Program-made: the position numbers and the translations under genes
Notes under the pieces: model-generated
The model's database searches: none
The model's input: the letters and a program-made list of their open reading frames with translations, nothing else
Told to the model about the DNA's origin: nothing
Assembly: GCA_044343155.1 (NCBI GenBank)
Contig: JAVZSS010000001.1
Coordinates: 6,023-70,022 of the forward strand
Source of the DNA: Candidatus Aenigmatarchaeota archaeon
GTDB taxonomy: Archaea; Aenigmatarchaeota; Aenigmatarchaeia; CG10238-14; SpSt-28
DNA length: 64,000 bases
Reading direction: 5' to 3'
Part shown: positions 7,578 to 40,131 of the stretch, one piece after another
Layout: each line of letters opens with the position of its first letter
How positions within the stretch are numbered: position 1 is the stretch's first letter

Positions 7578-7604
7578 ATTTATTTTAAAAATACAAGAAA
7601 AACT

Positions 7605-8925: not shown

Positions 8926-8930
8926 AAATT

Positions 8931-12551: not shown

Positions 12552-12553
12552 AC

Positions 12554-15239: not shown

Positions 15240-15336
15240 GCTGGGGTCGCCTAACCAGGTAGGGCGCCGGCCTCGAGTATGTAAGATAGCCGGTTGGGCT
15301 TTTAGCCCTGTGTGGGTTCGAATCCCACCCCCAGCG
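15240..15336 (+). tRNA. tRNA-Ser (anticodon CGA) with about 10-nt anticodon-loop intron
   Basis: Acceptor GCUGGGG/CCCCAGC, discriminator G73, long variable arm GGGCU-UUUA-AGCCC, T-arm GUGGG-UUCGAAU-CCCAC; anticodon stem CCGGC/GCCGG encloses 17 nt (loop CUCGAG + intron). Confidence 0.8.
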
Positions 15337-17718: not shown

Positions 17719-17752
17719 AAACTTTTTTATTAAATCTCTCCAATAATATTTA

Positions 17753-20700
17753 ATGAAGTTTGTAAAATGGATTAAGGAGTTATCTAAAAATGATTTGAAT
17801 TTAGTTGGAGGTAAAGCTGCAAACTTAGGAGAAATGATAAATGCTGGTTTACCTGTCCCTAATGCTTTTGTTGTTACTGCAGAAGCATATAAACATTTTA
17901 TCACAAAGAACAAACTTATGGGTAAAATAAAAAAAATACTAAGAAAAACTAATTTTAATGATCCTAAAAATTTAGAAGAATCTACACGAAAAATTAGAGA
18001 ACTTATTGAAAATTCTCCAATGCCAAAAGAAATAGAAGACGAAATAAAAGAAGCTTACAGAATGTTGTCTGAAGAATTTGGAGAAAATGAAATATCTGTA
18101 GCTATAAGAAGTTCGGCCACTGCAGAAGACATTCCCAGTGTAGCTGAAGACGAATTCATTTTATTAAGAATTGATGGAATGTTAAAACTAATTAAAATGA
18201 AGGATCTTTTTAAATTTACAAATTCTTTCATAGAAGTTTTAGGAATGAAAGAAGATGGAAGTCTAGATTGGTTTAAAGTAGATGGAATTTATAAGCATTA
18301 TGTTGATACATTTCTTTATAAAATAATAACAAAAAGCAAAAGAGAATTAGTTATATCTCCAAACCATTCGCTGATAGTACTAAATGGAAATTTGGAACCG
18401 GAAGTAATTTCGGCTATAGATGAAGTTAAAAAAGATAAAATTAAAGTTCCTGTATTAAGAAGAATTCCTAATGATAAATTTATTAAATATATTGATTTAA
18501 GAGAAATTTTTAAGGAAGGTTATGAAATTCATGATGGTAAGCTAAAACTTTTGAACAATTCATCCAATTGGAAAGTTCAAAATGGCTTAAATCCTATACT
18601 TCAGCTTACAGAAAATCTAATGTATTTTCTTGGAGTTTTCCTAGCTGATGGAACTATTGATATGCATTCTAGAAGAACCATAATTATAACAAGTGAAGAA
18701 AAAGAAGTTAAAGAAAAAATAAAGGAATTTTGTAGGGAGGTTGAATTAAATGCTAAAGAAGGAAGAAAGAACTCAATAAATATTCATTCAAGAGTTCTAA
18801 CTGAATTTTTAATCAAAACTACTTTTGCGGAAGAGCCAAGAAAGGGTGGTAAAGGTATTATTACCAGATTAAAAAAAGTTCCAGACTTTGTATTCAATGC
18901 TGAACCAAAATTAATTGGAGCATTTTTAAGGGGTTGCTTTGATGGAGATGGGAGTGTAACTAGAAATGAAGTGACCTTTAGCAACAAATCAATATATCTA
19001 ATTAATGGTATTGCAAAATTACTTGAACTACTTGGGATAGAGTATTGTATACAAAGAAAAAAGGACTGTATAGACATTTCTATATTATATAAATCACTTG
19101 AAAATTTTATGACAATGATTGGATTTGAGATTGAGGAAAAAAAGGAAAAATTAAAAAGGATTGTAGAAAAATATAAAGCTTCTAAAAAACACCTTGATTA
19201 TTTTGAAGTATTTGAAGTAAGAAGTGATATTTTAAGAAAACTATTAGAGAAAAAATTACCTAAATGTTTAGTAGAGTTTGCATATTGTCCAATTTGTAAT
19301 AAAAAGTTAGAGAAAACATCAAACTATAAAAACAAAACAAGATATGTTTGTAAAAATTGTAGAAGAACTTTCTATGAGGAAGAAGTTATAAAATATAAAG
19401 AATATGTTTATAAGTACTGGAACGAAAAGGGACAATTTACCACAAATCAAGTGCCTTGGAATAAAGGTAGAATAAGTAAGAGAGTTGGTAGAAGAAGGTT
19501 AGAAGCTATATTAGAAAATCTTGGAATTAGAGAAGAGGTGAAAATGTTAAATTCAGATATAAAATGGGAAGATGTGGTAAAAATTGAGCCAATTAAATAT
19601 AAAGGATTTGTTTATGACTTATTTGTTCCTAACGTTCAAAATTTTGCAGCAGGCTTAGGAGGAATTATTACTCATAATTCTGCAAGTTTTGCTGGCTTGC
19701 AACTTACTTTACTAAATATTAAAAATATAGAAAACGTTTTAAATGGAGTAAAAAAATGTTGGGCTTCTCTTTTTACACCCAGAGCAACTTTTTATAGAGA
19801 GCAAAAAGGGTTTAAGCATGAAAAAGTTTATATAGCAGTAATAGTTCAAAAACAACTTGGTGTTTTAAATAGAAAAGAGTATGAGGAAGGTAAATACAAA
19901 GCTGGAGTTGGATTCACGATTCATCCTTCTACTGGAGAAAAAGATAAAATTGTAATAGAATCTTCTTATGGACAAGGAGAAAGTGTAGTTAGTGGAGCTG
20001 TTAATCCCGATACTATAATAATAGATAAAAATACTGGAAATATTTTGGAGTTTCATGTTGGAAGAAAAGAAAAAATGAGAGTAACTAGTGAATTAGGAGA
20101 ATTGGAAGAAATTGAAACTCCACAAAATTTAAAAGAAAAACTTTCTTTAAACGAAGATGAAATAAAACAACTTTGGGAATTAGCTTTAAAGCTTGAAAAA
20201 CATTATAATTTCCCCCAGGATTTCGAATGGGTTTCCGAAAATGGAAAAGTTTACTTAGTTCAATCTAGACCGGTAACAGTTTTTTATGAAAAGAAGGAAA
20301 GCAAAACAATAACTGAAAAAAGTCCTTTAATTAAAGGTTTGGGTGCATCTCCTGGAGTAGCTATAGGAAAAGTTAAGATTGCGTTAACTGTTGAAGAAGC
20401 AAGCACAAAAATAGAAAGAGGAGATATACTAGTAACTAAAATGACTTCTCCTGATTGGACACCATTTATGAAAATTGCTTCTGCAATTATAACAACTGAA
20501 GGTGGGCTAACTTCTCATGCAAGCATAGTATCTAGAGAATTAGGAATACCTTGCATAGTTGGTGCTTCTGAGGCTTTGAATAAATTGAAAGATGGAATGT
20601 TAATAACAGTTGATGGAAGGAACGGTTTAGTTTATGAAGGTGAAATTAAAGAATTGATAGAAAGAGAAAAAGCTGAGGAGATTTCCATAGAAGATGTTGC

Positions 20701-21607
20701 CGGTTTGGAAACTAAAACAAAAATATTAATGAATTTGGGTGTACCAACAGAAATAGAGAAATATAAAGACTTACCTTTTGAAGGAATTGGATTGATGAGA
20801 ATTGAATTTATAATTGCAGAATGGATTAAAGAGCATCCCAATTATTTAATTGAAAGGGGGGAAGAGCAAAAGTATGTTGATAAATTAGCTGAAGGAATAG
20901 CTATGGTTGCTAAATCTATTTATCCTAGATTTGTTGTTGTTAGGTTTAGTGATTTCAAAACCAATGAATACAGAAAACTAAATGGTGGGGAGAAATTTGA
21001 ACCAATAGAAGCTAATCCTATGATTGGATGGAGAGGTGTTTCAAGATATATAAGCAAAGATTTTGAAAAAGCCTTTAGATTGGAATGTAAAGCTATTAAA
21101 AAAGTTAGAGAAGAATATAAACTTGATAACGTTTGGGTGATGCTTCCTTTTGTTAGAACAGTTTGGGAAGTTAAAAAAGTTCTTAAAATAATGGAAGAGG
21201 AAGGTTTGAAAAGAAGTGAAAATTTCAAAATTTGGATTATGGCTGAAGTTCCTAGTGTTGTATTTTTGGCCGATAAATTTGCAAAATATTGTGATGGGTT
21301 TTCTATTGGAAGTAATGATTTAACTCAATTAATTTTGGGTGTAGATAGAGATTCCGCAATTTTAACAAACATGGGTTATTTTGATGAAAGAAATGATGCC
21401 GTTTTAAAAGCAATTAGAGATTTGATAAAAAAAGCGCATAGAGCAAAAGTTACAGTTTCTATATGTGGGCAAGCTCCTAGTTTTTATCCTGAGTTTACTG
21501 AATTTTTAGTTAAATGTGGTATAGATTCTATTTCTGTTAATCCTGATGCTGTTCTAAAAACTAAGAAAATTGTTTATGATGTTGAAAGAAGATTGTATTC
21601 CCAATAA
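17753..21607 (+). CDS. ppsA: Phosphoenolpyruvate synthase (pyruvate, water dikinase) interrupted by an in-frame intein
   Basis: 1284 aa; N-terminal VGGKAANLGEM..VPNAFVVT; SSATAEDIP|intein|SASFAG; swivel-His GGLTSHASIVSRELGIPCIVG; C-terminal ICGQAPS; mature length about 770 aa. Confidence 0.9.
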   Translation: MKFVKWIKELSKNDLNLVGGKAANLGEMINAGLPVPNAFVVTAEAYKHFITKNKLMGKIKKILRKTNFNDPKNLEESTRKIRELIENSPMPKEIEDEIKEAYRMLSEEFGENEISVAIRSSATAEDIPSVAEDEFILLRIDGMLKLIKMKDLFKFTNSFIEVLGMKEDGSLDWFKVDGIYKHYVDTFLYKIITKSKRELVISPNHSLIVLNGNLEPEVISAIDEVKKDKIKVPVLRRIPNDKFIKYIDLREIFKEGYEIHDGKLKLLNNSSNWKVQNGLNPILQLTENLMYFLGVFLADGTIDMHSRRTIIITSEEKEVKEKIKEFCREVELNAKEGRKNSINIHSRVLTEFLIKTTFAEEPRKGGKGIITRLKKVPDFVFNAEPKLIGAFLRGCFDGDGSVTRNEVTFSNKSIYLINGIAKLLELLGIEYCIQRKKDCIDISILYKSLENFMTMIGFEIEEKKEKLKRIVEKYKASKKHLDYFEVFEVRSDILRKLLEKKLPKCLVEFAYCPICNKKLEKTSNYKNKTRYVCKNCRRTFYEEEVIKYKEYVYKYWNEKGQFTTNQVPWNKGRISKRVGRRRLEAILENLGIREEVKMLNSDIKWEDVVKIEPIKYKGFVYDLFVPNVQNFAAGLGGIITHNSASFAGLQLTLLNIKNIENVLNGVKKCWASLFTPRATFYREQKGFKHEKVYIAVIVQKQLGVLNRKEYEEGKYKAGVGFTIHPSTGEKDKIVIESSYGQGESVVSGAVNPDTIIIDKNTGNILEFHVGRKEKMRVTSELGELEEIETPQNLKEKLSLNEDEIKQLWELALKLEKHYNFPQDFEWVSENGKVYLVQSRPVTVFYEKKESKTITEKSPLIKGLGASPGVAIGKVKIALTVEEASTKIERGDILVTKMTSPDWTPFMKIASAIITTEGGLTSHASIVSRELGIPCIVGASEALNKLKDGMLITVDGRNGLVYEGEIKELIEREKAEEISIEDVAGLETKTKILMNLGVPTEIEKYKDLPFEGIGLMRIEFIIAEWIKEHPNYLIERGEEQKYVDKLAEGIAMVAKSIYPRFVVVRFSDFKTNEYRKLNGGEKFEPIEANPMIGWRGVSRYISKDFEKAFRLECKAIKKVREEYKLDNVWVMLPFVRTVWEVKKVLKIMEEEGLKRSENFKIWIMAEVPSVVFLADKFAKYCDGFSIGSNDLTQLILGVDRDSAILTNMGYFDERNDAVLKAIRDLIKKAHRAKVTVSICGQAPSFYPEFTEFLVKCGIDSISVNPDAVLKTKKIVYDVERRLYSQ
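18137..19678 (+). other. Intein (514 aa) with LAGLIDADG homing endonuclease and embedded CxxC..CxxC zinc ribbon
   Basis: Begins SVAEDEFILL (Ser1, block A) right after AEDIP; ends GGIITHN followed by +1 Ser; two LAGLIDADG motifs FLGVFLADGTI and FLRGCFDGDGSV; CPICNKK..CKNCRR between them. Confidence 0.8.
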
Positions 21608-23400: not shown

Positions 23401-23416
23401 CGCCCCCGCCGGGATT
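23401..23416. repeat. attL: 16-bp exact copy of the 3' end of tRNA-Asp (cgcccccgccgggatt)
   Basis: Identical 16-mer at 33468..33483 inside the tRNA-Asp gene; flanking bases give a degenerate T-arm remnant (gggattgggtcc vs gggattcgaaccc). Confidence 0.65.
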
Positions 23417-23476
23417 GGGTCCGTAAGTTAAAAACCTTTTTCTTTCATTTAAATTAACATAAGTTTAATTTCAAAT

Positions 23477-23611
23477 ATGAAATGTAGTATTTGTAGAGCG
23501 CCCGCTGAATTTTTTTACAAAAAAAAGAAAATAAAATACTTTTGCAGAAAACACGCAGCCGAATTCTTACTTTCTCACCCAGATGTTTCATTCTTGCCCA
23601 GAATTAAGTAA
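23477..23611 (+). CDS. Small zinc-ribbon protein (44 aa), MKCxxC...C(R)xHA family
   Basis: Not in ORF track (below size cut-off); translates MKCSICRAPAEFFYKKKKIKYFCRKHAAEFLLSHPDVSFLPRIK; same Cys/His pattern as the 73-aa ORF at 55524..55745. Confidence 0.4.
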   Translation: MKCSICRAPAEFFYKKKKIKYFCRKHAAEFLLSHPDVSFLPRIK

Positions 23612-23878
23612 TATAAGTCTTGTGAGCATATTCATCATTAAATAAGAGGAAGTCATTTCAAACTTTAGTACTAAATTGCTAGGTTCTTGTTTATTTTTTA
23701 AATTCAAGAGCATATTCGTTACACGAATATATTATAGAATTTTCTTCATTTAGATTAAAATAAAAATTCATACCGAAATTGAAAGTATTACAATTTGTAC
23801 AGATTAGTTTTCCTTCATCCACCTTTTGTAAGATCTAAATTCTCTTCCTTTATGATTTGTTTTTTGGGTTTTCCAACA

Positions 23879-25831
23879 TTATCTATTCTTTTCTATTTCA
23901 TTTCCATACTCTTTTATCAACTCTTCTACTGCTTTTTTTACACAACTAATACATGCCGGTTTCCATGTTTGCTTAAAGAAATCAAAAAGACGTAATCTAG
24001 TAAGTATTTTATGTTCAACGCATATTTCCTCTTTTTCTCCTACCCCTATCTTTGCTTTAAAAGTTCTTTCATTAACACCCTTTTTCTTTACTTCCTCCAG
24101 TATTTGATTGTAGAACTTTAAGTAGGGATCGGTCAAGTGATACATCAAATTACTATTTGATAATGTCGGATTATCTTGGATTCCAATATTTTTTTGCTCC
24201 TTACCTGAGATTAAGCTATTTTTTTGGTTTTCAATATATTGGAAGACAAAACCATCTTTATATTCATATAAAAATCTATAAAGGAACGGATCCGTATAAG
24301 AGTAGATATCCTCAGGCACTTGTGAAACAATCTTCTCATATGTTTCTAAATCGTCTTCCAGCATTTGTTTTAAAACAAAACAAAACTTTTCTCTAGTTAA
24401 CTCGCTATTTAATGTTGGATTCCAAGTTTCTCCGCTATTTTTTTCTTCTAAAAGCTTATATAAGTTATTTTTTCCAACCTTTATTTTACTTAGAAACCCT
24501 TTTTTAACCAATGAGTTGAATGTTTTAAACGTCAAATCATATTTATACTTCCACTCGCTTCTTTCAACACAATCATTTAAGAAAAACCAAGGACCACCAT
24601 TTACATTTCCTTTTTCGTCTCGACAACCTGGCTTTAATTTTTTTATCATTTCTAGCATATCTTCTTCTCTTTTATTTAATCCACCTCGACTCAATGCTAA
24701 AATTTTACTTGCAATCCTACAAGCTATATAAAAATCGGAAGGTAATGAAACCAAAATTCCTTTCTCTTCGTTTCTAGGCCTTTGGTATTGATAAAAATGA
24801 GCTATCAGTTTTATAAGTGTTATAAAATTCTCTTCTTTTCTCCTATCATCAATAGAGTTAGATGGAAAATTTAGAAAGTCAAGGTAAGGTATAAGAATGT
24901 AGGGATATGCTTTAAGTTTGTTTATCGCATGTTTAATGACTTTTAGTTTTCGTTCATAAAGATTTTGCTGTGTAATAGAAAGCTTGGCTTTCCATTTTCT
25001 CCATAAAGAGATTCGTTTGGTCTGTTCCATACTCTCATCAGGATTTATTGTCCATTCTCTTGCGGCTCTGTGAAGGGACGGATTTTCTGTTGAGGTTGTT
25101 ATATAAACAAGAGGACCTCTAAGTCGTATTTCTATTGGTTCCCAATTTTTTCCTTTAGGAACATTTATACCAATTACTATTTCCTCTTCGCCATAAAGTT
25201 GCTCGAATTGAATACCTTGAATACCACTTCGATCCTCTAAGTGAATTATTATGGAACCTTGTGTTTGTATTTTATTTTGAAGAACTTTCCTATAAAAATA
25301 GGCAGAAGTAGTAGAAGCAAAAACATACACATTATCAAAGAGTTTTGGAATGATTTTTATTTCTGCATTTTTTCCTGCAGACGGAATACCTCTCACGCCA
25401 ATCAACTGAGTTGAATACTTTCTTGCCTCACTCAAGATAACTAAACAAATCCTATTAGCTTCATCACCAGTGATTTCATACTCAAGGGCCTTGTTTATTT
25501 CAGCCAAAAAAGCTGGATTATATAAAAGTTCAGTCGCCTCTTTCTCAATCATAGTATCTGTTTCTATACTTTTTTCATCAGGCTTATGCGAAAACTGCTG
25601 AGTCTTTTGATGTAATTCTATTTCTATTTCTTTCAATGTACTCTTTAAGGTAGTTAATGGAATTTTTGTTTTGGTTGCAATTAACTTTAATACTTCATGT
25701 TTTTGTAAAGTTGTGAGAGGCAACTTAAGTAACTCTTTTAAAAAAAATTCAATAGTTTGGGCTGGTGATTCTTTCTTTAAGTTTGTTTTGATTATTTCTT
25801 TCAAGTTTTCAAAAGAAATTGTTTCTTCCAT
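23879..25831 (-). CDS. Large element-encoded protein, putative replication/NTPase protein
   Basis: 650 aa; degenerate P-loop GVRGIPSAGKN followed by hydrophobic strand plus IIIHLED; largest ORF on the element, next to Zn-finger proteins. Confidence 0.45.
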   Translation of the reverse strand: MEETISFENLKEIIKTNLKKESPAQTIEFFLKELLKLPLTTLQKHEVLKLIATKTKIPLTTLKSTLKEIEIELHQKTQQFSHKPDEKSIETDTMIEKEATELLYNPAFLAEINKALEYEITGDEANRICLVILSEARKYSTQLIGVRGIPSAGKNAEIKIIPKLFDNVYVFASTTSAYFYRKVLQNKIQTQGSIIIHLEDRSGIQGIQFEQLYGEEEIVIGINVPKGKNWEPIEIRLRGPLVYITTSTENPSLHRAAREWTINPDESMEQTKRISLWRKWKAKLSITQQNLYERKLKVIKHAINKLKAYPYILIPYLDFLNFPSNSIDDRRKEENFITLIKLIAHFYQYQRPRNEEKGILVSLPSDFYIACRIASKILALSRGGLNKREEDMLEMIKKLKPGCRDEKGNVNGGPWFFLNDCVERSEWKYKYDLTFKTFNSLVKKGFLSKIKVGKNNLYKLLEEKNSGETWNPTLNSELTREKFCFVLKQMLEDDLETYEKIVSQVPEDIYSYTDPFLYRFLYEYKDGFVFQYIENQKNSLISGKEQKNIGIQDNPTLSNSNLMYHLTDPYLKFYNQILEEVKKKGVNERTFKAKIGVGEKEEICVEHKILTRLRLFDFFKQTWKPACISCVKKAVEELIKEYGNEIEKNR

Positions 25832-26334
25832 TCTTTCACCGCAAACTTTGATAAAGTTTTAAGAAAATTTGAATAACGTAAAGGAGCATAATTACGGCGT
25901 TTTACATATTGATATTGATAATTCAGACGCTTTCCTGATTTCTTATATTCCTCTTCTGAGTAACCACAGATTTTAAACCATTTCAAAATAACTTCAATAC
26001 TCTCTTTTTCTCCCAGTTTTTTTACATTTGCTAGATAGGGCATTAAGATTAGATCAACTATTCTTTTTCGTCCGTCTCTAAAAGGGGTTTCTAAAATTTT
26101 TTCAATCCATTTATAATTTCTTTGGGAAAACAGTGTTTGTCTGCATGAGCTACATACAGGCAGATTATAGGATTCAATAACATATAAGATATTTCCGTCA
26201 CTATCTACAATCACATCAACAGGAGTGGGTAGGAAAGAAATACCTTTTTTCGAGTTGCAAAATGAACAACTTTTCAAAAACTCTAAAAATTTCAACTTAT
26301 TGTCTTCCATTATAATCAACCATATTACTATCAA
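25801..26334 (-). CDS. Zinc-finger protein (CxxC-x30-CxxC), element-encoded
   Basis: 177 aa; CSFCNSKKG...CSSCRQTL; basic C-terminus. Confidence 0.4.
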   Translation of the reverse strand: MIVIWLIIMEDNKLKFLEFLKSCSFCNSKKGISFLPTPVDVIVDSDGNILYVIESYNLPVCSSCRQTLFSQRNYKWIEKILETPFRDGRKRIVDLILMPYLANVKKLGEKESIEVILKWFKICGYSEEEYKKSGKRLNYQYQYVKRRNYAPLRYSNFLKTLSKFAVKEWKKQFLLKT

Positions 26335-26437
26335 ATAGGTAAGATCTTTTTTTACGCTCTTGCCATACCTTTTTAAAAGTAAGAAACCATTTAGGCAATT
26401 TCGTATTTGTTTCTTGGCTATTTTCCACCGATATCAC

Positions 26438-26692
26438 CTATTTTTTAGTGCTACGGTTTCTAACATTTCTTGAAAGGTAAAGGGTGCTGGGAAATTTCAA
26501 GAAACTTTCTCTGTAGTTTTCTTCTTTTTGATAATTAGGTGGAAAAACAATAAGGACATCATCGTAAAGGATGTTTAATTTTTGTTTCTTTTTTATGTCC
26601 CAAAATTTTGCCCAAGCTTGCGGTAATGTAATAGCTAGACTTTTCTTTTGGCTTCCAAGTTCTAGTACGCTTCTTCTTTCTATTCCAGGCAT
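26438..26692 (-). CDS. AbrB/SpoVT-like (swapped-hairpin) DNA-binding protein
   Basis: 84 aa; LAITLPQAWAKFWDIKKKQKLNILYDDVLIVFP matches the AbrB-domain pattern. Confidence 0.45.
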   Translation of the reverse strand: MPGIERRSVLELGSQKKSLAITLPQAWAKFWDIKKKQKLNILYDDVLIVFPPNYQKEENYRESFLKFPSTLYLSRNVRNRSTKK

Positions 26693-26740
26693 TTATAAAC
26701 ATATTTAAAATTTATTTATACCACCAATGGTGGCATCATA

Positions 26741-27079
26741 ATGATTGAGGAAATCTTAAAAAAGAAAGGACGTCCTTTAAGTGAAAAGGAAATTATAGAA
26801 ATTGCCAAAAGAGATGGTTATCTAAAAGATGAAAAAAATATCAAGAAACATATTAGGAAAGCTGTTGAAAGAGGTGAAATTTACAGGTTTGCAACGCATT
26901 TAGAAGGGAGTTTAAAAACTCATAATTTATACTATTTACCTGAATGGAAAAGCCAACTAATTTTTAATCCTAGTGATAAAACATTTGAGTTTAGGATTAA
27001 TAATAAAACCATTGGAACAGGGTGGGTAGATGTTGTGAGATTTGAAGTTTCAAAAAAAAAGAATGAGCTTGTTTTTTAA
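26741..27079 (+). CDS. Hypothetical small protein (possible winged-helix)
   Basis: 112 aa ORF on element, opposite strand to neighbours. Confidence 0.35.
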   Translation: MIEEILKKKGRPLSEKEIIEIAKRDGYLKDEKNIKKHIRKAVERGEIYRFATHLEGSLKTHNLYYLPEWKSQLIFNPSDKTFEFRINNKTIGTGWVDVVRFEVSKKKNELVF

Positions 27080-27102
27080 AGCTATTCTATCCAAAGATAT
27101 GT

Positions 27103-27552
27103 ATGCGGCTTTCAGTTGCAGAAGAAATTGTGCAAAAGCTAAATTCGGGAAAATATGGGTTGCTTACACTTAGTAAAGAATACGGAATTTCACCAAAACA
27201 AATCCTTAGTCTTTCAAAGCGGATAGATAAGGAGAGAAAGAAGAGAGAAATAAAAGAAAAACTTATAATTGAGGGAAAAAAGAAGATTGTGTTAGGCAAA
27301 CTTAACTACTATATTACTACTATCAAAAAAACTTTAGAAGAATATGATGATTGTGATGAGTTCATGAAATATTGTTTAGTTTGCCTTAATGTGCTAGAAG
27401 AATTAGCAGTTCAAGTGAAAAAATGTTCTGATAGAGAAGAATTAAACGTGATTAAAAACTTATGTGAACAATGCTTCCGAGGAATTAAGATTAAATATGG
27501 AGAAGTTTGGGAAATTTCTAGTCCTGAATATTTTGAGTCAATTTTTGACTAA
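27103..27552 (+). CDS. Hypothetical protein
   Basis: 149 aa ORF; Cys pairs CLVCLN...CEQC could form a metal site. Confidence 0.35.
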   Translation: MRLSVAEEIVQKLNSGKYGLLTLSKEYGISPKQILSLSKRIDKERKKREIKEKLIIEGKKKIVLGKLNYYITTIKKTLEEYDDCDEFMKYCLVCLNVLEELAVQVKKCSDREELNVIKNLCEQCFRGIKIKYGEVWEISSPEYFESIFD

Positions 27553-28474
27553 CTTCCAATCGCTGTGCATTTTTTTCTATAAATTTTTCAAATTCTTCTA
27601 GTGGCTTCAGTACTTTTTCCTCATAAACAGTTTTAAGTTTAATGTAAGATAGAAACATTAATAGATTATCGTTAAAACATTCCTGTAAGATTTGTTCTAG
27701 TGAAATTCGTTTTTTCAGCGTATTTATAAAAGTTAAAATTTCCTGTAAAAATGCCCATAATTCATTCGGGTCTAACAAGAACTTAACTTTTTTCTCTTCA
27801 ATTAATTTTTCCAGTTTTTTTATTTCTTCATGTAAACTCATTAACTTACCTCTATATTGTTCTTCTAACAAATCTTTTTCCTTTCTTATCTTTTCTCTAA
27901 TCTCTTTAATTATTGCTTCTCTTTCTCTAACTACTATATCTCGTTGCTCAATTAGTTTATTCACTTCTTTATCTAACTTTTCTTTTTTTTCTGTAAGCTG
28001 ATTACAGATGTAACTTAATTCCTTTATTTTTCTTTCCATCTCTTTTTGTTTATTTATCATAATTTTGTTCAAATCCCTAAGTTTTTTCCCACTCTCCCGA
28101 AGTTTTCTTATTGCAATTTTGATGTCTTCTTTACCTCCAACTCTTTCCAACTCTTTTTGAAGAACCAAAATTTCCTTTAATTTGTTAAAAGAGATTTTGG
28201 TTTTTTGAATTTTCCAAATACCTTCGACTAGATCTATTAAAGAAATTCCACGCTGCTTACATAATTCTAAAACTTCTTGAAAAGTTGCTGTTTCCCAGTC
28301 CTTTGTTACTTCTCTCTTCTTTTTTGCTTCAGTATAGTACTTTGAGCAAGTGTCATCAGAAAGGTTTAGCCTTTTTCCTATTTCTCGAAAGGATAATCTC
28401 TCCTCATCACGCAGCCTAACAATTTCTTCAATTGTTTTCCGGCTTATAATTTTAGGCATTTTATTCCCAAACAA
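27518..28474 (-). CDS. HTH-containing coiled-coil protein
   Basis: 318 aa; N-terminal EERLSFREIGKRLNLSDDTCSKYY helix-turn-helix, rest E/K-rich coiled coil. Confidence 0.45.
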   Translation of the reverse strand: MFGNKMPKIISRKTIEEIVRLRDEERLSFREIGKRLNLSDDTCSKYYTEAKKKREVTKDWETATFQEVLELCKQRGISLIDLVEGIWKIQKTKISFNKLKEILVLQKELERVGGKEDIKIAIRKLRESGKKLRDLNKIMINKQKEMERKIKELSYICNQLTEKKEKLDKEVNKLIEQRDIVVREREAIIKEIREKIRKEKDLLEEQYRGKLMSLHEEIKKLEKLIEEKKVKFLLDPNELWAFLQEILTFINTLKKRISLEQILQECFNDNLLMFLSYIKLKTVYEEKVLKPLEEFEKFIEKNAQRLEVSQKLTQNIQD

Positions 28475-28756
28475 AGATAGTTAAACTACAATAAAAACCT
28501 TTAAAAGTTTTAAAAAACTACTAACTTTTAACGGGTGTAGAAAGAATGTAAAATTAATAACTTCTATATAAAGGTAAAAGAATAAAATCTTACAAAATCC
28601 ATCTTAAATTGGCTTTATTTCGTCTTGTTTTCTTTGTTTTAGAAGGTTTATATTTTTTGACAGAAAAAAGAAAAGATACTGAATCTTAAAAATACTGCCA
28701 AGTTCTTTTTCATTTTTAACCTTTCATTTCCTTTTTCAAAGGATAGAAACACAATT

Positions 28757-30067
28757 TTAAATTTTTTTCTTCTTAACAAGAATAAGTAAAACTATAAACA
28801 CCATTATTATAAAGATTATTGCTATTCCTAGTGGTGAGGTTACCAATATAACTAAACCTGTTAATCCAGCAGGTGTGGGTTGTATAATTGCTGTACAGAC
28901 ATTTGCTATGCATTTAGTTCCTGATGGACAAACACAATCTTCTGGACAACTTGAGCAAGTTTCTCCAGCCTCACAATATCCGTTACCACATATTGGAGAT
29001 GGAGGTATTTTTTCCTCTATTACTCTTTCAATAGGTCTTTCAATAAATCTAGTTTCAGTTATATTTGTAACATTAGTTATAGTTGTCACATAGGTCGGAT
29101 AACTAACGTAAGTTACCCTAGGAGGATAGTAGAAAGATGTAAATACGCCATAAACACTTAAACTTGTTACATTCATAGAAACATAATTATCAGTTACCTT
29201 TGAGAACATTTGTACCCAGCTTGCAGTTCCATTTGTTATATATAATCTGTAAAAAGTCAGTTTGCTTATATCCCAACCTTTTGCGATTAAAACATCCCTA
29301 TCAAAGTAGTACCTTACTTCTATACTACCGTTAAAAGAGGTTTGATTTATAAGATCAAAATAAATTACTGGAAATGGACTGTTAGTAGGAACTCCTTTAA
29401 AGAATATTGAGCTATAAATTAAAGCTTTAATAGTTATGTTTTGTTGTGGATATGAAATAAATTCAATCTTTTCGAAAGGAGGATTAATTATCAAACTTCC
29501 ATATCCATTTATTACATTAACTGTCGGTTCTAATATAGGAACTCCTATATCTGTCATGAGCTCAATAGTAAAATCAAAAGTCGCTGGTGTAAGTGCTACG
29601 TTTGGAATTAAAGTTATTGTAACATAGTTAAAACTAGATGGCATTACTATGTAAAAGAACTCCGGATTATAGCAATAAAGAGTAAAATTATTTGGAATAG
29701 ATGATTTGAAAGTTTCTCCTATTTGCTCAAAGGTAACAGGCGGTAATACACATGTAAGTGAAATTTCTTGTGTTATAGGACCATTTAAAGCTTGTGTTAA
29801 TAAGTTTCCATAACCAATAAAATCGTTTTCACTAAAAAGATAGCCTTCTGAAGATACATTAACTCTTACTACTAAAGGTGCCCATTCATTGCCTATATAT
29901 TTAAAGCTTACCCTTGATGTGATGGGAGCACCAGCAACTACATTCGTAAAATTCTGGACTACTTGACATAACCTGAAAGGATAAGAAGACTCATCACAAA
30001 GAAGTTGAGCTTTAACTAAGGGAATTACTACCAAGCTTAACAATATAAATATGATTAGCTTTTTCAT
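28757..30067 (-). CDS. Secreted Cys-rich surface protein with C-terminal membrane anchor
   Basis: 436 aa; N-terminal signal peptide; many N-x-S/T sequons; CGNGYCEAGETCSSCPEDCVCPSGTKCIANVC module; C-terminal PTPAG + TM helix + KKKKI. Confidence 0.5.
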   Translation of the reverse strand: MKKLIIFILLSLVVIPLVKAQLLCDESSYPFRLCQVVQNFTNVVAGAPITSRVSFKYIGNEWAPLVVRVNVSSEGYLFSENDFIGYGNLLTQALNGPITQEISLTCVLPPVTFEQIGETFKSSIPNNFTLYCYNPEFFYIVMPSSFNYVTITLIPNVALTPATFDFTIELMTDIGVPILEPTVNVINGYGSLIINPPFEKIEFISYPQQNITIKALIYSSIFFKGVPTNSPFPVIYFDLINQTSFNGSIEVRYYFDRDVLIAKGWDISKLTFYRLYITNGTASWVQMFSKVTDNYVSMNVTSLSVYGVFTSFYYPPRVTYVSYPTYVTTITNVTNITETRFIERPIERVIEEKIPPSPICGNGYCEAGETCSSCPEDCVCPSGTKCIANVCTAIIQPTPAGLTGLVILVTSPLGIAIIFIIMVFIVLLILVKKKKI

Positions 30068-30624
30068 CCCGTCACCTGAAGTCTTGTATCACCATTTGGG
30101 TTTGTTTCCAGATAAAAGATAATTGAGGGAGAAGCCATTCCTTTAACTTCATATACTATATATTTTACCGAATTTAGATTTAGAATTGAAGAACTTGTGC
30201 AAGACTCTGAAATTACTGTGAAGTCTGTTGAAGTATTGATACTTTTTTCACAAATCTGAATTTCATTATCATTAGTATCATAGTATTTACAAATTAACCT
30301 TACTTTTGAAGGTTGGGAAGAATAGATTTTTATAGAAAAGTGACATGTAGGAATATAACTAAAGTTAATTCCTCCAAAGTCATCTGACCAAAAGATAATA
30401 GATTGACCATCTTGAAATTGGATTGTGTAAGTAGAATTTGGTTGTACGTTTAGTAGAAGCTTACCTATAGTGTTATTATTGCTCTCTAAATCAGCATAGA
30501 ATGTTGGTCCTCGAACACTAACAGTTCCCAGAACTTTACCATAATAACTTAAAACTCCGGCATAAGTTAGACTAATGAATAAGAAAAACACCATTCCAAA
30601 CATTATCAAGTGTCCCACCTTCAT
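30064..30624 (-). CDS. Secreted/membrane-anchored protein, paralog 1
   Basis: 186 aa; N-terminal hydrophobic segment then LSYYGKVLGTVSV, shared with the 30738..31334 protein. Confidence 0.45.
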   Translation of the reverse strand: MKVGHLIMFGMVFFLFISLTYAGVLSYYGKVLGTVSVRGPTFYADLESNNNTIGKLLLNVQPNSTYTIQFQDGQSIIFWSDDFGGINFSYIPTCHFSIKIYSSQPSKVRLICKYYDTNDNEIQICEKSINTSTDFTVISESCTSSSILNLNSVKYIVYEVKGMASPSIIFYLETNPNGDTRLQVTG

Positions 30625-30737
30625 TTTCTCCCTTCTTCAAGACCCCTGGCAGTTTGACCTGCCCAGAGCTCATAAAAAAACAAAAATGGGGTAGAAACAA
30701 AACTATAGTATTTTACTTGTTTTAATGCTGTTTTACT

Positions 30738-31334
30738 TTATGCTGGTAAGACTTTTACAGTATAGGTATAGTTACCTGGTTCTGCATTAATCTTGAATTT
30801 TATTTTAATACAAAAGTCTTTTTCTCCTCCCGCTTCAAGCTCTAATCTTCTTCCTACTTTTCCTTCTTCAATTCCTGAACCTATCTCATTGTCTGTACAA
30901 CTACCACTAATATATTCTACAAACTTAACCGACTCAATTGCTGCATCTAAATTTGTTTCATTGTCTACTTCATTGTTATTATCATTATCTATACCCACTA
31001 TAATGCTTGCAGATGATTGGCTTGCATAATTTTTAACTCTAAAATATTTTATCTCAGCATTGTTTGACGAGTCCTTTCCATTAACTAGTTCGTCTCCTGC
31101 AACTATCTCACTATAAAAATTTATCTCTCCTTTATAGTCAATTTCCTGAATTTGTTGGTTATCACTACCATAATCAGAAAGTTTTACCGACTGTTGTACT
31201 GTTGCTGTTCCTACTGCTCTTCCATAATAAGTTAGTAGTCCTGCAATTCCTAAACCTGCTAGAACGCTCAAGACAATCATTGTTGCTAGCACAACCCCCC
31301 AATTCAACTTATTACCTTTCATTCGACTCACCAT
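30738..31334 (-). CDS. Secreted/membrane-anchored protein, paralog 2
   Basis: 198 aa; N-terminal TM then LTYYGRAVGTATV; D/N-rich middle; higher GC codons than host genes. Confidence 0.45.
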   Translation of the reverse strand: MVSRMKGNKLNWGVVLATMIVLSVLAGLGIAGLLTYYGRAVGTATVQQSVKLSDYGSDNQQIQEIDYKGEINFYSEIVAGDELVNGKDSSNNAEIKYFRVKNYASQSSASIIVGIDNDNNNEVDNETNLDAAIESVKFVEYISGSCTDNEIGSGIEEGKVGRRLELEAGGEKDFCIKIKFKINAEPGNYTYTVKVLPA

Positions 31335-31377
31335 AATATTTTTTGAACAAAACTAATTTAAGCTTTACCATTTTTAA

Positions 31378-31406
31378 TGTACCAACTGTGTACCATTATT
31401 GTACCA
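31378..31406. promoter_or_regulatory. Three phased direct repeats TGTACCA at exact 11-bp spacing (putative operator)
   Basis: tgtacca at 31378, 31389 and 31400, in the 81-bp gap between the ArsR-family gene stop and the start of the 198-aa secreted-protein gene. Confidence 0.5.
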
Positions 31407-31415
31407 ATTTTGAAT

Positions 31416-31799
31416 TTATCTAACCTTTTTATTTATGTTACATGCTTTTTCTAATTGGGCCTGAGTAAAGAAGTTTCTAGTAGCATAGAGATATATTTCT
31501 TTAATTAAATCAATTTTTTCCTTAACTAGCCCCCAAATTTTTCTTCTCTTTCCATTCTTAGATGTCTTGACTACATTTACAATTCCGTATTCTTTCAATT
31601 TCTCTAAATGATGTAAAACTACTCTATGATTTTTCCCTAAATGATAAGAAATCCTCTCAACACTTAAAGAATGGTCAGTTATACTTGATTTTATCAATAA
31701 ATAAAGGATAGCTACTCGAGTTAAATTCGAGCAAATAAAATCAAGGTCGGCATATATTGCTCTTTCATTTACTTCTTTGCTCTTAAAAATTAACTCCAT
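31416..31799 (-). CDS. ArsR-family winged-helix transcriptional regulator
   Basis: 127 aa; RVAILYLL..SVERISYHLGKNHRVVLHHLEKLKEYGIV classic ArsR HTH. Confidence 0.65.
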   Translation of the reverse strand: MELIFKSKEVNERAIYADLDFICSNLTRVAILYLLIKSSITDHSLSVERISYHLGKNHRVVLHHLEKLKEYGIVNVVKTSKNGKRRKIWGLVKEKIDLIKEIYLYATRNFFTQAQLEKACNINKKVR

Positions 31800-31854
31800 A
31801 AACTTAGTTTTATGTTGAATATTTAAATTTAATAAATAAAAACAAATACTATCT

Positions 31855-32154
31855 ATGGAAATAGAAATAGAAAAGTACTTTCTAAAAATAGATCCTAATA
31901 AGGTACTTTCAAAAATTGTAGAAGAAAGAGTTAATCGCGCTTTTTCTATTTTATTGCTGATTGAAACAATAATAAAAGAAAAACTTGGAAAAAATGTTGA
32001 ATCTTTAAACTTACCTCTTCTAATTGGAAATTCAGTTAAATCTCAAGATGAAAAAGATCAATTCTTAAAGTTGTTAAAAGAAAGGGGAATGAAAGAAAAG
32101 GATTTAGATTTTATAAGGAAACTTATAGAAGAAGTTTATTTCTTAATAGGTTAA
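31855..32154 (+). CDS. Hypothetical small protein
   Basis: 99 aa ORF, divergent from integrase. Confidence 0.3.
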   Translation: MEIEIEKYFLKIDPNKVLSKIVEERVNRAFSILLLIETIIKEKLGKNVESLNLPLLIGNSVKSQDEKDQFLKLLKERGMKEKDLDFIRKLIEEVYFLIG

Positions 32155-32188
32155 GAAATTAACAAAAATTTTTGTTTCATCAATCATG

Positions 32189-33418
32189 TCATTCACTTAA
32201 CATTTGTATTAATTTTTTCTTAAATTCTTTTGGTAGCTCTTCATTCAGCATTTTTTCGGTTCCTTCTATCATTGCTTTTAAAACTTTAGGGTCCCCCATC
32301 AATCTTAACATCCATTCGTCTATAATTTTTCTTCTTTCCTCTATCTCAAAAGAAGCCTGTAAGGTTAAAGGCATTCCACAACTTCTGCAAAAACTATTAG
32401 TTGCTTCGTTAATTGTTTTACATCTTACACATACAATTGGTTCCATTTTACTTTCTACTTTTTCTTTTTCTACTCTCTTTATTCCATAAACTTTTCCTAA
32501 AATTGCCTCATCTATATCCCTTGCAGACAAATGTACATAGGTTGCTGCCATTTTACTTGCTTGAGTCCAACCAGCGTAAAATTTTAGCTCTTGTTCAGTT
32601 AAAAACTTTGCTAATTGAGTTAACCTACTATGCCTAAATAAATAAGGATTTATTGTCTTTTTTAAACCAGCAAGTTTTGCAGCTTTTCTTATAACCTTAA
32701 CAAGAGCAGCATAGGTCATAGGTTGGTATTTTCCAACATTCCCTGTTAATATCCACAAAGGTGAGCTCTTATCTTGCTTGAAAGGATGATTTTCAATCCA
32801 ATTTGCCAAGTACGGAGATGCTATTAACAGTCTAATCTTCCTCATTCCAGTTTTCCCAGTAAGAACAATTAAAGCACCATATTCGTCGAAAGTTACATCC
32901 ATTATTCGCATTCCCAGAATTTCTCCAGGTCTTCCTGCACTTTCATATAAACATGCTATTAATGCTTTATCTCTTAAGTTATCGCATTTCTCTATAAGTT
33001 TTTTAACATCTTCTTCAGTAAGTAACTCTTCAGGTAGTTTTGTTTCATTGAGTTTTACATGAATTTTAATATCTTTAACCAAATCTTCTTTTCCCAACCA
33101 TTTGAAAAATTTTCTTATAATAACTCTATACATAGAAACTGTCCAAGGAGAAAAACCACTTTCCTCTATTTTTCTAAGTAGTACTAATATATCATTCTTA
33201 TTTACTTTCTTCAAATCTTTCCTTACCCATTTACAAATTTTATGTAAACATTGTACATACCTACTTACTCTTCCTTTACTCAGTCTTTCATAAACACTTG
33301 TTTCAACAAACTTTTTAATAAGCTCCTTATTACTTTTCAGAACTCCTTTATCTTTCTCCAATCTTTTTAGATCATCCTTAAGCCTTTCTTCATAGTTATG
33401 TATATCAACCTTTTCCAT
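32189..33418 (-). CDS. int: Tyrosine recombinase/integrase (intact)
   Basis: 409 aa; catalytic box residues in RPGEILGMRI, LFRHSRLT and ATYVHLS (R..H-x-x-R..Y); 50 nt from tRNA-Asp 3' end. Confidence 0.85.
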   Translation of the reverse strand: MEKVDIHNYEERLKDDLKRLEKDKGVLKSNKELIKKFVETSVYERLSKGRVSRYVQCLHKICKWVRKDLKKVNKNDILVLLRKIEESGFSPWTVSMYRVIIRKFFKWLGKEDLVKDIKIHVKLNETKLPEELLTEEDVKKLIEKCDNLRDKALIACLYESAGRPGEILGMRIMDVTFDEYGALIVLTGKTGMRKIRLLIASPYLANWIENHPFKQDKSSPLWILTGNVGKYQPMTYAALVKVIRKAAKLAGLKKTINPYLFRHSRLTQLAKFLTEQELKFYAGWTQASKMAATYVHLSARDIDEAILGKVYGIKRVEKEKVESKMEPIVCVRCKTINEATNSFCRSCGMPLTLQASFEIEERRKIIDEWMLRLMGDPKVLKAMIEGTEKMLNEELPKEFKKKLIQMLSE

Positions 33419-33467
33419 ATTTAGAGGTTAAGAGTAAGGGTTTAAATATTTTTAACTTAAGGATAAG

Positions 33468-33540
33468 CGCCCCCGCCGGGATTCGAACCCGGGTCTCAGG
33501 CGTGACAGGCCTGCATCCTAGACCACTAGACGACGAGGGC
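33468..33540 (-). tRNA. tRNA-Asp (anticodon GTC)
   Basis: Acceptor GCCCUCG/CGGGGGC (one G-U), anticodon arm CAGGC-CUGUCAC-GCCUG, T-arm CCGGG-UUCGAAU-CCCGG, discriminator G. Confidence 0.85.
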
Positions 33541-33593: not shown

Positions 33594-33714
33594 GGTTGGC
33601 AGCGACGTGGATTTCCCACTCCATAGCGGAGCAGTACTTTCCACACCTCTGGGAGGCTTAACTTCCGGGTTCGGAATGGGACCGGGTGTTTCCCTCCCGA
33701 TCTGGCCGCCAACC
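33594..33714 (-). rRNA. rrf: 5S ribosomal RNA
   Basis: GC-rich 121-nt island; minus-strand read GGUUGGCGGCC...CACCCGGUCCCAUUCCGAACCCGGAAGUUAAGCC...GCUGCCAACC with helix I pairing of the ends and universal loop C/helix III block. Confidence 0.85.
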
Positions 33715-40017: not shown

Positions 40018-40131
40018 TAGCCCCGGGCGGATTCGAACCGCCGTCCCCGGGTTTCTTTCTCATCCTAAACCTCAAAGCTTTAGTCTTTTGAGACCAAAGC
40101 CCGGTATCCTTGGCCGCTAGACGACGGGGCT
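40018..40131 (-). tRNA. tRNA-Gln (anticodon TTG) with about 41-nt intron
   Basis: Acceptor AGCCCCG/CGGGGCU, T-arm GGCGG-UUCGAAU-CCGCC, anticodon stem CCGGG/CCCGG enclosing CUUUGG + intron (CAAAAG..CUUUGAG can pair with the anticodon region). Confidence 0.75.

Follow-up and report, generated by a model that had tools for sequence, protein, structure and literature searches.

The stretch of DNA analyzed here, a 64-kb window from a Candidatus Aenigmatarchaeota contig, raises the question of what lies between a tRNA-Asp gene and a second copy of that gene's 3' end. The tRNA-Asp(GTC) gene, recognized by ARAGORN and by the Rfam tRNA model (63 bits), occupies 33467-33540 on the minus strand (start at 33467 or 33468) and adjoins a 5S rRNA at 33594-33713 (Rfam). 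Its 3'-terminal 16-mer, CGCCCCCGCCGGGATT, recurs 10,067 bp away, as the initial annotation had claimed; the two copies lie at 23401-23416 and 33468-33483 and bound a region of 10,083 bp (23401-33483). The annotation had also considered a chance match very unlikely and allowed that a 16-mer common in the genome would speak against the element. We found no match in 100 dinucleotide shuffles and exactly two occurrences in the window, even with two mismatches allowed. The copy at 23401-23416 is the distal att core (attL in window orientation), while that at 33468-33483, made of the 3' acceptor and T-stem bases of tRNA-Asp, is the tRNA-proximal core (attR), and the tRNA stays intact because the element supplies its 3' end. 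The degenerate T-arm remnant reported beyond 23416 was not convincing (GGGTCCGTAAG versus CGAACCCGGGT), and the repeat is exactly 16 bp.

Inside the two cores, a repeat search revealed an inverted-repeat arm, TCCGTAAGTTAAAAA (23420-23434, 3 nt from the distal core), and its partner, TTTTTAACTTAAGGA (33449-33463, 4 nt from the tRNA-proximal core), which represent candidate integrase-binding sites in the reconstituted attP. When the ends are joined, the att core falls between these arms, which match at 14 of 15 positions, a level reached by 0.055% (5.5e-4) of random 40-nt segment pairs. The attP junction as reconstructed reads …AACTTAAGGATAAG-CGCCCCCGCCGGGATT-GGGTCCGTAAGTT…, and the empty attB would read …CAATTAAAATT-CGCCCCCGCCGGGATT-CGAACCCGGG…. 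No empty site was observed, the closest relatives, found through the left-flank gene, having lost synteny on the PpsA side, nor was a circular form, none of the related contigs being circular.

The composition of the bounded region also sets it apart. Its GC content is 30.6% versus 27.9% outside, where the highest 10-kb segment reaches at most 29.2%, and its GC3 is 23.2% versus 17.7% (Mann-Whitney p = 1e-4), which agrees with the earlier remark that codon GC is unlike that of the flanks. All 12 of the larger genes are intact and free of frameshifts. The tRNA-proximal end is occupied by the single integrase gene (32189-33418, minus strand), which is full-length, starts 49 nt from the att core and is not split by integration. 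The 409-aa product matches Pfam Phage_integrase (68.8 bits), Phage_int_SAM_1 and the PHROG 1 integrase (E 1e-30), can be aligned to XerA of P. abyssi (PDB 4a8e), and consists of a SAM-like N-terminal domain, a catalytic domain and a C-terminal C4 zinc ribbon whose cysteines (C330/C333/C344/C347) are conserved. Residues R163, K189, R262, W284 and Y294 are invariant. An intact tyrosine recombinase with an R..HxxR..Y signature had been described; the intactness and the R and Y residues stand, whereas the HxxR motif is actually Y259-x-x-R262. His occupies this position in 113 of 117 relatives, and Tyr is found only here and in the three closest integrases (64-70% identity), so the variant is maintained rather than a recent lesion. 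We assume that the enzyme is active despite this replacement of the conserved His. Members of the same integrase family lie directly after tRNA genes in three related loci (L002, L014 and L029), and the L002 and L014 islands have 14-nt and 12-nt tRNA 3'-end repeats at their far sides. These observations support an integrated element at tRNA-Asp that has defined ends, differs in composition from its surroundings and encodes its tyrosine integrase in one unsplit gene.

How such an element might replicate is suggested by two genes near its distal end. The larger (23879-25831, minus strand) encodes a 650-aa protein that had been proposed as a candidate replication NTPase with a degenerate P-loop. 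The P-loop indeed reads GxxxxGKN (GKN versus the usual GK[ST]), and the predicted structure is an MCM-like AAA+ fold with all catalytic residues conserved, followed by a winged helix and C-terminal domain; its N terminus is predicted to be helical, with no recognizable MCM N-terminal OB/Zn domain, and the protein has no match to Pfam MCM. Its relatives are fused to DnaG primases and are carried on bacterial plasmids, and archaeal ones occur in two integrase-bearing contigs (L006 and L007). The modeled fold thus supports a role as a replication NTPase, a candidate replicative helicase or initiator, with helicase activity assumed for the GKN-type Walker A. Upstream, and overlapping the helicase gene start by 31 nt at its 3' end, lies a 177-aa gene (25801-26334, minus strand). 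Its product had been listed as a Zn-finger protein; a C4 Zn-ribbon is present, and the identity is refined by a PriX primase helix-bundle domain (Pfam PriX, 38.6 bits, cut-off 25; NCBIfam primase_PriX, 62.5 bits, cut-off 50). PriX, PriCT and PriL are primase accessory domains (PMC5862659), and the element has genes for neither a catalytic primase nor a polymerase. The PriX-helicase pair is kept in L001.

The C-terminal winged helix, and the position of the helicase gene directly downstream of a primase-related gene, recall the MCMs of mobile elements, the SCCmec Cch/Cch2 proteins with their upstream primase (PMC7581432) and SaPI Rep, from all of which the 650-aa protein differs in its missing Pfam MCM match, missing MCM N-terminal domain and GKN motif. 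The upstream partner here has only the accessory PriX domain and no catalytic primase. Similarly, pRN1-type helix-bundle primases of mobile elements share the helicase-linked PriX/PriCT-type domain after a Zn-binding element (PMC2965215, PMC5862659), whereas the present element lacks the catalytic AEP (prim-pol) domain and encodes the helix-bundle protein as a polypeptide of its own.

The most distinctive genes form a triad on the minus strand, secA-secB-surf. SecA (198 aa, 30738-31334) has a signal-like N terminus, after which comes the invariant motif AG[LV]L.YYG[KR]..G...V, and finds no match among Pfam, PHROG, NCBIfam or PDB sequences. SecB (186 aa, 30064-30624) is its distant paralogue (BLASTP E 6e-8) and shares the N-terminal motif, in line with the two paralogous secreted proteins noticed earlier. 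The surf gene (28757-30067), whose start overlaps the secB stop, encodes the Cys-rich membrane-anchored surface protein of the initial annotation, a 436-aa glycoprotein candidate with a signal peptide, 10 N-glycosylation sequons, the Cys-rich module CGNGxCExGExCxxCPxDC, a C-terminal transmembrane anchor and a lysine tail; none of its 18 homologues contains a Pfam domain. More than 20 related loci retain the order secA-secB-surf; several of them share the tRNA-integrase layout, and others are stand-alone. The description as secreted-protein cargo is thereby refined, the triad being a conserved signature cassette of the element family that also turns up where no integrase is present, and not incidental cargo.

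Immediately upstream of the triad lies a gene for a 127-aa ArsR-type winged-helix regulator (31416-31799, minus strand; Pfam HTH_5, 29.9 bits, cut-off 22), and a homologue with 46-77% identity precedes the triad in many loci. The AbrB-type and HTH coiled-coil proteins named together with it were also recovered: an 84-aa AbrB/SpoVT/MazE-fold small DNA-binding protein (26438-26692, minus strand; Pfam MazE_antitoxin, a borderline 24.4 bits, cut-off 24.7), and a 318-aa protein that combines an HTH at the N terminus with a long coiled coil (27518-28474, minus strand; Sigma70_r4_2 and HTH_24, both below cut-off), which has a homologue with 39-44% identity in L024. On the plus strand, orf99 (99 aa, 31855-32154) matches no family and is conserved in L001 (58% identity) and L024 (41%); a 149-aa protein (27103-27552), likewise without a family match, has a homologue in L024, and a 112-aa protein (26741-27079) has weak winged-helix matches only. 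Two putative CxxC...C mini-ORFs, of 43 aa (23691-23822, minus strand) and 44 aa (23477-23611, plus strand, adjoining the distal att), are ORF calls only.

Taken together, 23401-33483 is very probably one integrated mobile element of Candidatus Aenigmatarchaeota, for which the best fit is a "cryptic integrated element" or integrative plasmid. Such elements (CIEs), described in Thaumarchaeota with MCM or Cch-like helicases and said to have no signature genes (PMC6563490), share with it the non-split tyrosine integrase, short direct repeats of which one lies in the 3' end of a tRNA, a length near 10 kb, a replication protein of MGE type (MCM or Cch-like AAA+), wHTH regulators and the lack of virion or conjugation hallmarks. 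It differs from them in its DPANN host, in the unmodeled MCM-like helicase family paired with a stand-alone Zn-ribbon/PriX protein, and in the three-gene secreted-protein cassette conserved across its family. The pT26-2, pTN3 and SSV-type elements, suggested for comparison in the initial annotation, are also archaeal and integrate into tRNA genes, and some carry MCM (PMC6972569, PMC7253208), but theirs is a "suicidal" integrase gene split by integration, whereas here the att core lies outside an intact gene, a distinction drawn from the integrase/att layout.

Searches of PHROGs, INPHARED, IMG/VR and PADLOC found no viral, conjugative or defense hallmarks, consistent with the earlier statement that none of the cargo was recognized as a core protein of archaeal viruses or plasmids, and on this absence of viral hallmark matches a plasmid-like reading fits best over a viral one. 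It is nevertheless possible, if rather doubtful, that the region is a provirus of an enveloped pleolipovirus-like virus of Aenigmatarchaeota, with secA, secB and surf encoding virion membrane and spike proteins and a genome that leaves by budding within vesicle-like particles and has tRNA-Asp as its integration site. Among viral sequences, the integrase is matched best by two pleomorphic proviruses of Archaeoglobi, GacPV1 (37% identity, E 6e-61) and ThalV2, and homology at 35-37% identity extends over the "Thalassapleoviridae" proviruses AvPV1, GacPV1 and ThalV2 (PMC10919331) and temperate pleolipoviruses. These proviruses (13-18 kb) integrate at tRNA genes, and GacPV1 and ThalV2 show the order integrase, small ORF, VP3-like, VP4-like fusogen and replication protein, with membrane or secreted-protein genes straight after the integrase, a run that ends in a large type-I anchored glycoprotein; the order here is, in parallel, integrase, small ORF/ArsR, secA, secB and surf. 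The spike-like topology of surf, with its heavy N-glycosylation potential, a compatible size of 8-12 kb, and the triad's persistence beside the integrase in three or more integrase lineages point the same way, and structural proteins of pleomorphic viruses can diverge beyond the reach of sequence methods (PMC10919331). Against this, hhalign gave probabilities of only 1.3-1.5% for surf versus VP4-like proteins and 0.1% for the sec proteins versus VP3-like ones, the surf profile found nothing in PDB at E <= 10 (HRPV fusogens included), and neither secA nor secB crosses the membrane several times as VP3 does. Moreover, no homologue of ORF6-like proteins or of the VP8 NTPase was found in the element, the MCM-like helicase and PriX stand in place of a rolling-circle Rep, and the triad occurs in none of the 2.9 million IMG/VR contigs. 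Because the same integrase family also carries defense islands, the integrase link is weak evidence for a provirus.

Elsewhere the triad stands with no integrase within 10 kb (L012/L013, L020-22, L030-33, L038-41 and L018), and it lacks an integrase at other chromosomal sites and even at the same tRNA-Asp locus (L018/L025/L027), so it could be a host cassette picked up by elements. This distribution, together with the His-to-Tyr change in the integrase and the unseen excised form, might indicate an immobile fixed island, either a decaying remnant or a chromosomal surface-protein operon beside a resident recombinase that neighbors tRNA-Asp by coincidence, which we regard as improbable given the intact genes, the perfect 16-bp repeats with preserved inner inverted repeats, the persisting GC3 shift and the maintained Tyr variant. 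Furthermore, the triad here is closer to that of L012 at a different locus (ArsR 72%, secA 64%, surf 65-72% identity) than to that of L018 at the same locus (32/40/53%), despite L018 housekeeping neighbors that are 54-81% identical to those of the window.

Related elements were found only in uncultured Aenigmatarchaeota-like contigs, four of which (L014, L016, L024 and L029) combine integrase, triad, PriX and a helicase (MCM, MCM-like or AAA_25). The L016 and L029 integrases are 97% identical while their triads and helicases differ, indicating mosaicism; L001 holds PriX, helicase and orf99 in 6 kb without the triad, and L002 is a tandem with a second integrase after the repeat. Such shuffling could reflect at least two successive insertions at a tRNA hotspot (for example, integrase-triad and PriX-helicase units) that left the outermost att copies, an origin with very little likelihood here, since the core exists in two copies only, there is one integrase, and the recurrence of integrase, triad and helicase in one island marks the combination as a recurrent unit.

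For the preferred reading of an integrated plasmid-like element, the integrase would recombine the 16-bp core of a circular attP, flanked by the 15-nt inverted repeats, with the identical bases of tRNA-Asp and thereby regenerate the tRNA. The excised circle may replicate through its own MCM-like AAA+ helicase, with the translationally coupled Zn-ribbon/PriX protein as a putative non-catalytic partner that holds template and nucleotide; as no catalytic primase is encoded, a host enzyme would have to supply the activity. Regulation of maintenance and expression would fall to the ArsR-, AbrB- and HTH-type proteins. The earlier suggestion of an undescribed family is supported, and apparently such a family, with a DPANN host, is marked by three conserved secreted or surface proteins. 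Its ArsR-linked operon would export a C-terminally anchored glycoprotein and two paralogues that are processed by signal peptidase and whose mature N terminus is strictly conserved, and we infer that the triad either modifies the cell surface or assembles into a structure, be it on the surface or as a particle.

The segment at 23401-33483 is an intact-looking, tRNA-Asp-integrated and putatively self-replicating mobile element of a DPANN archaeon, and the initial annotation, which proposed an integrated element of about 10 kb with an intact integrase at this tRNA gene, is borne out and was largely correct in its interpretation. Both ARAGORN and Rfam detect tRNA-Asp(GTC) on the minus strand at 33467/8-33540, and a 5S rRNA gene lies at 33594-33713. 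The 16-mer CGCCCCCGCCGGGATT, the reverse complement of the tRNA-Asp 3' acceptor and T-stem bases, occurs inside the tRNA gene (33468-33483) and again at 23401-23416, with no third copy at up to two mismatches in the 64-kb window. Matches were found in 0/100 dinucleotide shuffles, which bears out the original view that the upstream repeat of the tRNA 3' end is unlikely to be due to chance. The degenerate T-arm remnant described after the distal copy has to be dropped, since the repeat is exactly 16 bp long and the bases that follow bear no convincing likeness to a T-arm. Direct repeats, one of them the 3' part of a tRNA gene, are what is expected of tRNA-targeting integrative elements of the non-split (pNOB8/XerA-like) type.

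When the circle is reconstituted, the core lies between the 15-nt arm TTTTTAACTTAAGGA (33449-33463) and the inverted arm TCCGTAAGTTAAAAA (23420-23434), at distances of 4 nt and 3 nt, respectively, and the inverted arms agree at 14/15 positions, a match attained by 0.055% of random 40-nt segment pairs drawn from the window. Because this symmetry arises only on pairing these two particular ends, it independently supports that they belong together, and we infer that the arms form a candidate integrase-binding site. The predicted attP junction of the excised circle is TTAAATATTTTTAACTTAAGGATAAG-CGCCCCCGCCGGGATT-GGGTCCGTAAGTTAAAAACC, and that of the empty site, attB, is TTATTTTCATCAATTAAAATT-CGCCCCCGCCGGGATT-CGAACCCGGGTCTCAGG. 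The element (10,083 bp) has a GC content of 30.6% versus 27.9% outside, where 10-kb windows reach at most 29.2%; the GC3 of its long ORFs is 23.2% versus 17.7% (Mann-Whitney p = 1e-4), and nearly all its genes are encoded on the minus strand, whereas those of both flanks face the other way, as the differences in strand and codon GC noted at first reading had indicated.

Genes for a 482-aa protein and an intein-containing PEP synthase lie in the left flank, and those for prefoldin, FtsY and SRP54 in the right. The intein of the PEP synthase gene (17753-21607, plus strand) contains a LAGLIDADG homing endonuclease (Intein_splicing, LAGLIDADG_3, Hom_end). Searching genome contigs for an empty site with the 482-aa protein returned four Aenigmatarchaeota MAG loci, none of which (0/4) has a tRNA-Asp adjoining that gene, its neighbours there being other than in the window, and terminal repeats of a circular form were absent from every related contig checked. 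The integrase and the 650-aa and 436-aa proteins of the element are identical to those on a 77.9-kb contig of an NCBI MAG of Candidatus Aenigmatarchaeota archaeon.

The integrase gene (32189-33418) encodes 409 aa that match the Phage_integrase and SAM-like N-terminal domains of Pfam and are alignable to Pyrococcus XerA (PDB 4a8e). Five residues (R163, K189, R262, W284, Y294) and a C4 zinc ribbon at the C-terminus do not vary in an alignment of 117 integrases, while the HxxR histidine is replaced by Tyr259 solely in the window integrase and its three closest relatives. The intact R..HxxR..Y recombinase annotated beside the tRNA is thus full-length and keeps R163, R262 and Y294, but not the histidine; judged from its sequence, an integrase with a putatively complete catalytic set, Y259 being the one atypical residue, adjoins the att site. 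It is not of the SSV (suicidal) type that includes pT26-2, in which att lies inside a split gene, because here the core lies outside the intact gene, 49 nt upstream of its start codon.

At least 628 relatives of the integrase, of about 400 aa each, come from MAGs of many archaeal phyla. Among related loci in other contigs and metagenomes, L002, L014 and L029 carry same-family integrases directly downstream of intron-containing tRNA genes, which were found with Rfam and missed by ARAGORN. A copy of the tRNA 3' end recurs on the other side of the island in L002 (14 nt) and L014 (12 nt); a second att copy was sought without success in L018, L021, L024, L026 and L029, and only L014 and L002 gave one. 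Because of these far-side repeats, short cores in tRNA 3' ends look typical of the family, and the resulting rule, cores of 12-16 bp in tRNA 3' ends for a widespread archaeal Zn-ribbon integrase family, could serve to mine further elements. Elsewhere, same-family integrases occur with other cargo, such as the defence genes of L002 and L004. In L002, a defence island (1246-12683; AAA_15/AAA_21, SduA-like) is bounded by the 14-nt repeat of the intron-containing tRNA, and a second integrase immediately after it makes a tandem array at a tRNA hotspot. Rfam also finds three more tRNA genes in the window, at 15240-15336 (plus), 40018-40131 (minus) and 48513-48624 (plus), all missed by ARAGORN; they are 97-114 nt long and probably contain introns. 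ARAGORN therefore overlooks intron-containing tRNAs in these genomes, and its negative tRNA calls at related loci are unreliable.

The 650-aa protein (23879-25831, minus strand) has no match in Pfam, PHROG, NCBIfam or PADLOC. A word-indexed search gave two relatives only, and a full HMMER profile search gave 7,534 (representative clusters, E <= 1e-3), most of which are bacterial, 800-1100 aa long, and begin with a DnaG-type primase (Zn ribbon, DNAG_N, Toprim). The region common to the relatives corresponds to query residues ~12-460 and is placed after the primase, and weak tblastn matches fall on bacterial plasmids, under genes annotated as CHC2 zinc-finger proteins. One archaeal relative has a Gins51_C domain in place of the DnaG-type primase. 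AlphaFold2, run with an 81-sequence alignment, gave a confident model (pLDDT 85.9) in which residues 1-120 are predicted to be helical and the protein appears to adopt an MCM-clade AAA+ fold with Walker A/B, arginine finger and sensor 2. The shared domain has no sequence match in the PDB; the window protein also escapes the MCM P-loop domain PF00493, which the helicases of L024 and L029 match. Against viral models, Foldseek reports resemblance to primase-helicases and fusellovirus proteins. K154, E199, R258 and R330/R331 are invariant in the family. The P-loop once called degenerate does read GKN instead of GK[S/T], but the four archaeal members share this variant, so it is a feature of the clade rather than decay.

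Upstream of the helicase gene, and overlapping it by 31 nt, lies the gene of a 177-aa protein (25801-26334, minus strand) that consists of a C4 zinc ribbon and a PriX domain, the latter scoring above both curated cut-offs (PF18689, 38.6 bits against 25; NF033412, 62.5 bits against 50). The same gene pair is found in L001, with 52% and 48% identity. PriX, PriCT and the C-terminal domain of PriL form a set of related helical modules, which keep the template and the initiating nucleotides in place for archaeo-eukaryotic primases and which, in mobile elements, are usually fused to the catalytic domain (PMC5862659, PMC2965215). No AEP/prim-pol catalytic domain was detected in the element proteins with Pfam or NCBIfam, and the 177-aa protein would link the host primase with the helicase of the element. 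In bacteria, relatives of the helicase achieve this primase-helicase coupling through fusion to DnaG, whereas here a stand-alone PriX protein would serve the purpose. This MCM-like AAA+ family of ~7,500 clusters, mostly DnaG-fused in bacteria and with a stand-alone PriX-type partner in archaea, has no Pfam or NCBIfam model, and its two arrangements amount to a natural experiment in primase-helicase coupling.

Following the ArsR-type gene (31416-31799, minus strand), a tight operon encodes secA (198 aa, 30738-31334), secB (186 aa, 30064-30624) and surf (436 aa, 28757-30067), all on the minus strand. As first annotated, secA and secB are secreted paralogues, though distant ones (E 6e-8): in the ten sequences compared, both start with a hydrophobic leader that has a terminal AxA-like site, followed by the invariant motif G[LV]L.YYG[KR]..G...V. 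The annotation of surf as a Cys-rich, membrane-anchored surface protein agrees with its signal peptide, ten N-glycosylation sequons, CGNGxCExGExCxxCPxDC module, C-terminal transmembrane anchor and lysine tail. All three lack a match in Pfam, PHROGs, NCBIfam and the PDB sequences; sec and surf family profiles run against the PDB returned nothing, and Pfam over all sec members returned noise only. There are 18 surf homologues, and scanning metagenomes yielded more than 20 full-length loci; the secA-secB-surf order is constant in all of them, often preceded by an ArsR homologue (46-77% identity). The Cys-rich module by itself (surf residues ~360-391, window 28869-28967) is a widespread extracellular mini-domain without a family assignment in this analysis: dozens of metagenomic proteins that are unrelated in other respects contain it, among them those of many loci in L043-L097.

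The triad is combined with an integrase and a replication module in four loci. L014 and L016 have the order tRNA/integrase, triad, AAA_25 NTPase and PriX protein, L029 has tRNA, integrase, triad and MCM, and L024 has tRNA-Arg, a divergent integrase, MCM, PriX and triad, together with homologues of the HTH-coiled-coil protein, orf149 (27103-27552, plus strand) and orf99 (31855-32154, plus strand). The integrases of L016 (79-1296) and L029 (6877-8103), from different metagenomes, are 97% identical, but their triads differ (57% versus 37-40% identity to the window surf), as do their helicases (AAA_25 plus PriX versus MCM). Therefore, the triad elements are mosaics, and the comparison points to recent module exchange. 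In the 237-kb contig of L014, fragments matching DNA polymerase B flank the element on both sides (2047-4746 and 17592-17966), and many genes look broken, which may stem from frameshifts in the assembly or from disruption of polB.

Several loci have a triad with no integrase within 10 kb. The stand-alone triad L012/L013 is flanked by Lhr on one side and by SSB/TruB on the other in an Aenigmatarchaeota contig of 622 kb, where the Lhr helicase likewise bears an intein. The 387-kb contig Ga0315280_10000010 holds two divergent triads (L030 and L031) separated by ~125 kb; an ArsR homologue accompanies one of them, and neither has a same-family integrase within 10 kb. The most informative case is L018/L025/L027, in which the SRP54-FtsY-prefoldin-5S-tRNA-Asp side is collinear with the window (54-81% protein identity); the tRNA-Asp of L018 ends in the same 16-mer and a triad (8324-11380) starts ~440 nt downstream, and the 6 kb available contain no integrase, no ArsR gene and no further copy of the att core. 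The window triad is nearer to the L012 copy, from a different locus, than to the L018 copy from the same tRNA-Asp locus. We read stand-alone triads as remnants, or as cassettes captured or domesticated at integration hotspots.

No element protein matches capsid, packaging, conjugation, transposase or defence families in Pfam, PHROGs, NCBIfam or PADLOC, and the triad and helicase are absent from 50,697 deposited phage and archaeal-virus genomes (INPHARED) and from IMG/VR, where scans with the helicase alignment, the 436-aa protein and the surf and sec alignments found nothing. The early remark that the cargo is unlike known archaeal virus or plasmid core proteins is hence sustained for all but the integrase. 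With an integrase and att sites and none of the virion, packaging, conjugation or transposase hallmarks, the element is a cryptic integrated element by the usual criteria (PMC6563490).

The best viral matches of the integrase are the Archaeoglobi pleomorphic proviruses GacPV1 (37% identity) and ThalV2 (36%), whose gene order (integrase, small ORF, VP3-like, VP4-like fusogen, Rep) resembles the layout of the triad family and would fit a provirus of an unknown pleomorphic virus, a reading we consider possible but rather doubtful. The study that reported these proviruses notes that their structural proteins could be recognised only through HHpred and AlphaFold (PMC10919331). At the level of sequence, neither the VP4-like fusogen nor the VP3-like protein of Pleolipoviridae/'Thalassapleoviridae' is seen in the element: profile comparison by hhalign gave surf-VP4 and sec-VP3 probabilities of at most 1.5%, the surf profile finds no PDB sequence, and VP3, a multi-spanning membrane protein, is unlike secA and secB. 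A defence-island reading was rejected, as PADLOC found no known defence-system protein, only a generic wHTH similarity of the ArsR-like protein.

The cryptic integrated element overturns no concept; in archaea, elements that integrate at tRNA genes and carry MCM-type helicases are familiar. For DPANN archaea, to our knowledge, mobile elements have hardly been characterised. The novelty is the host lineage, the PriX and MCM-like module and the conserved secreted triad, not the kind of element. No description of the triad-element family was found, with a prior one in Wu et al. 2024 (Nat Microbiol 9:3362) being possible. The window element is the best-bounded example in this analysis, in that its att sites are exact and both its integrase and its replication module are intact, and it belongs to a family with further members in Aenigmatarchaeota-like contigs. 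The conserved cassette of three genes, in which the mature N-terminus is strictly conserved, is found in company with different integrases and helicases and may encode a virion or surface structure. Tentatively, and less probably than not, the triad could be the structural module of a new family of temperate pleomorphic viruses with an envelope, or of vesicles that carry plasmids, infecting DPANN Aenigmatarchaeota; surf436 would then be a new type of fusogen or spike, the processed paralogues virion proteins, and the stand-alone triads proviral remnants or domesticated copies. In a variant of this proposal, mobile elements would spread the triad as the builder of a surface fibre or adhesin of the donor-strand type, which, if true, would alter the attachment of these episymbionts to their hosts.
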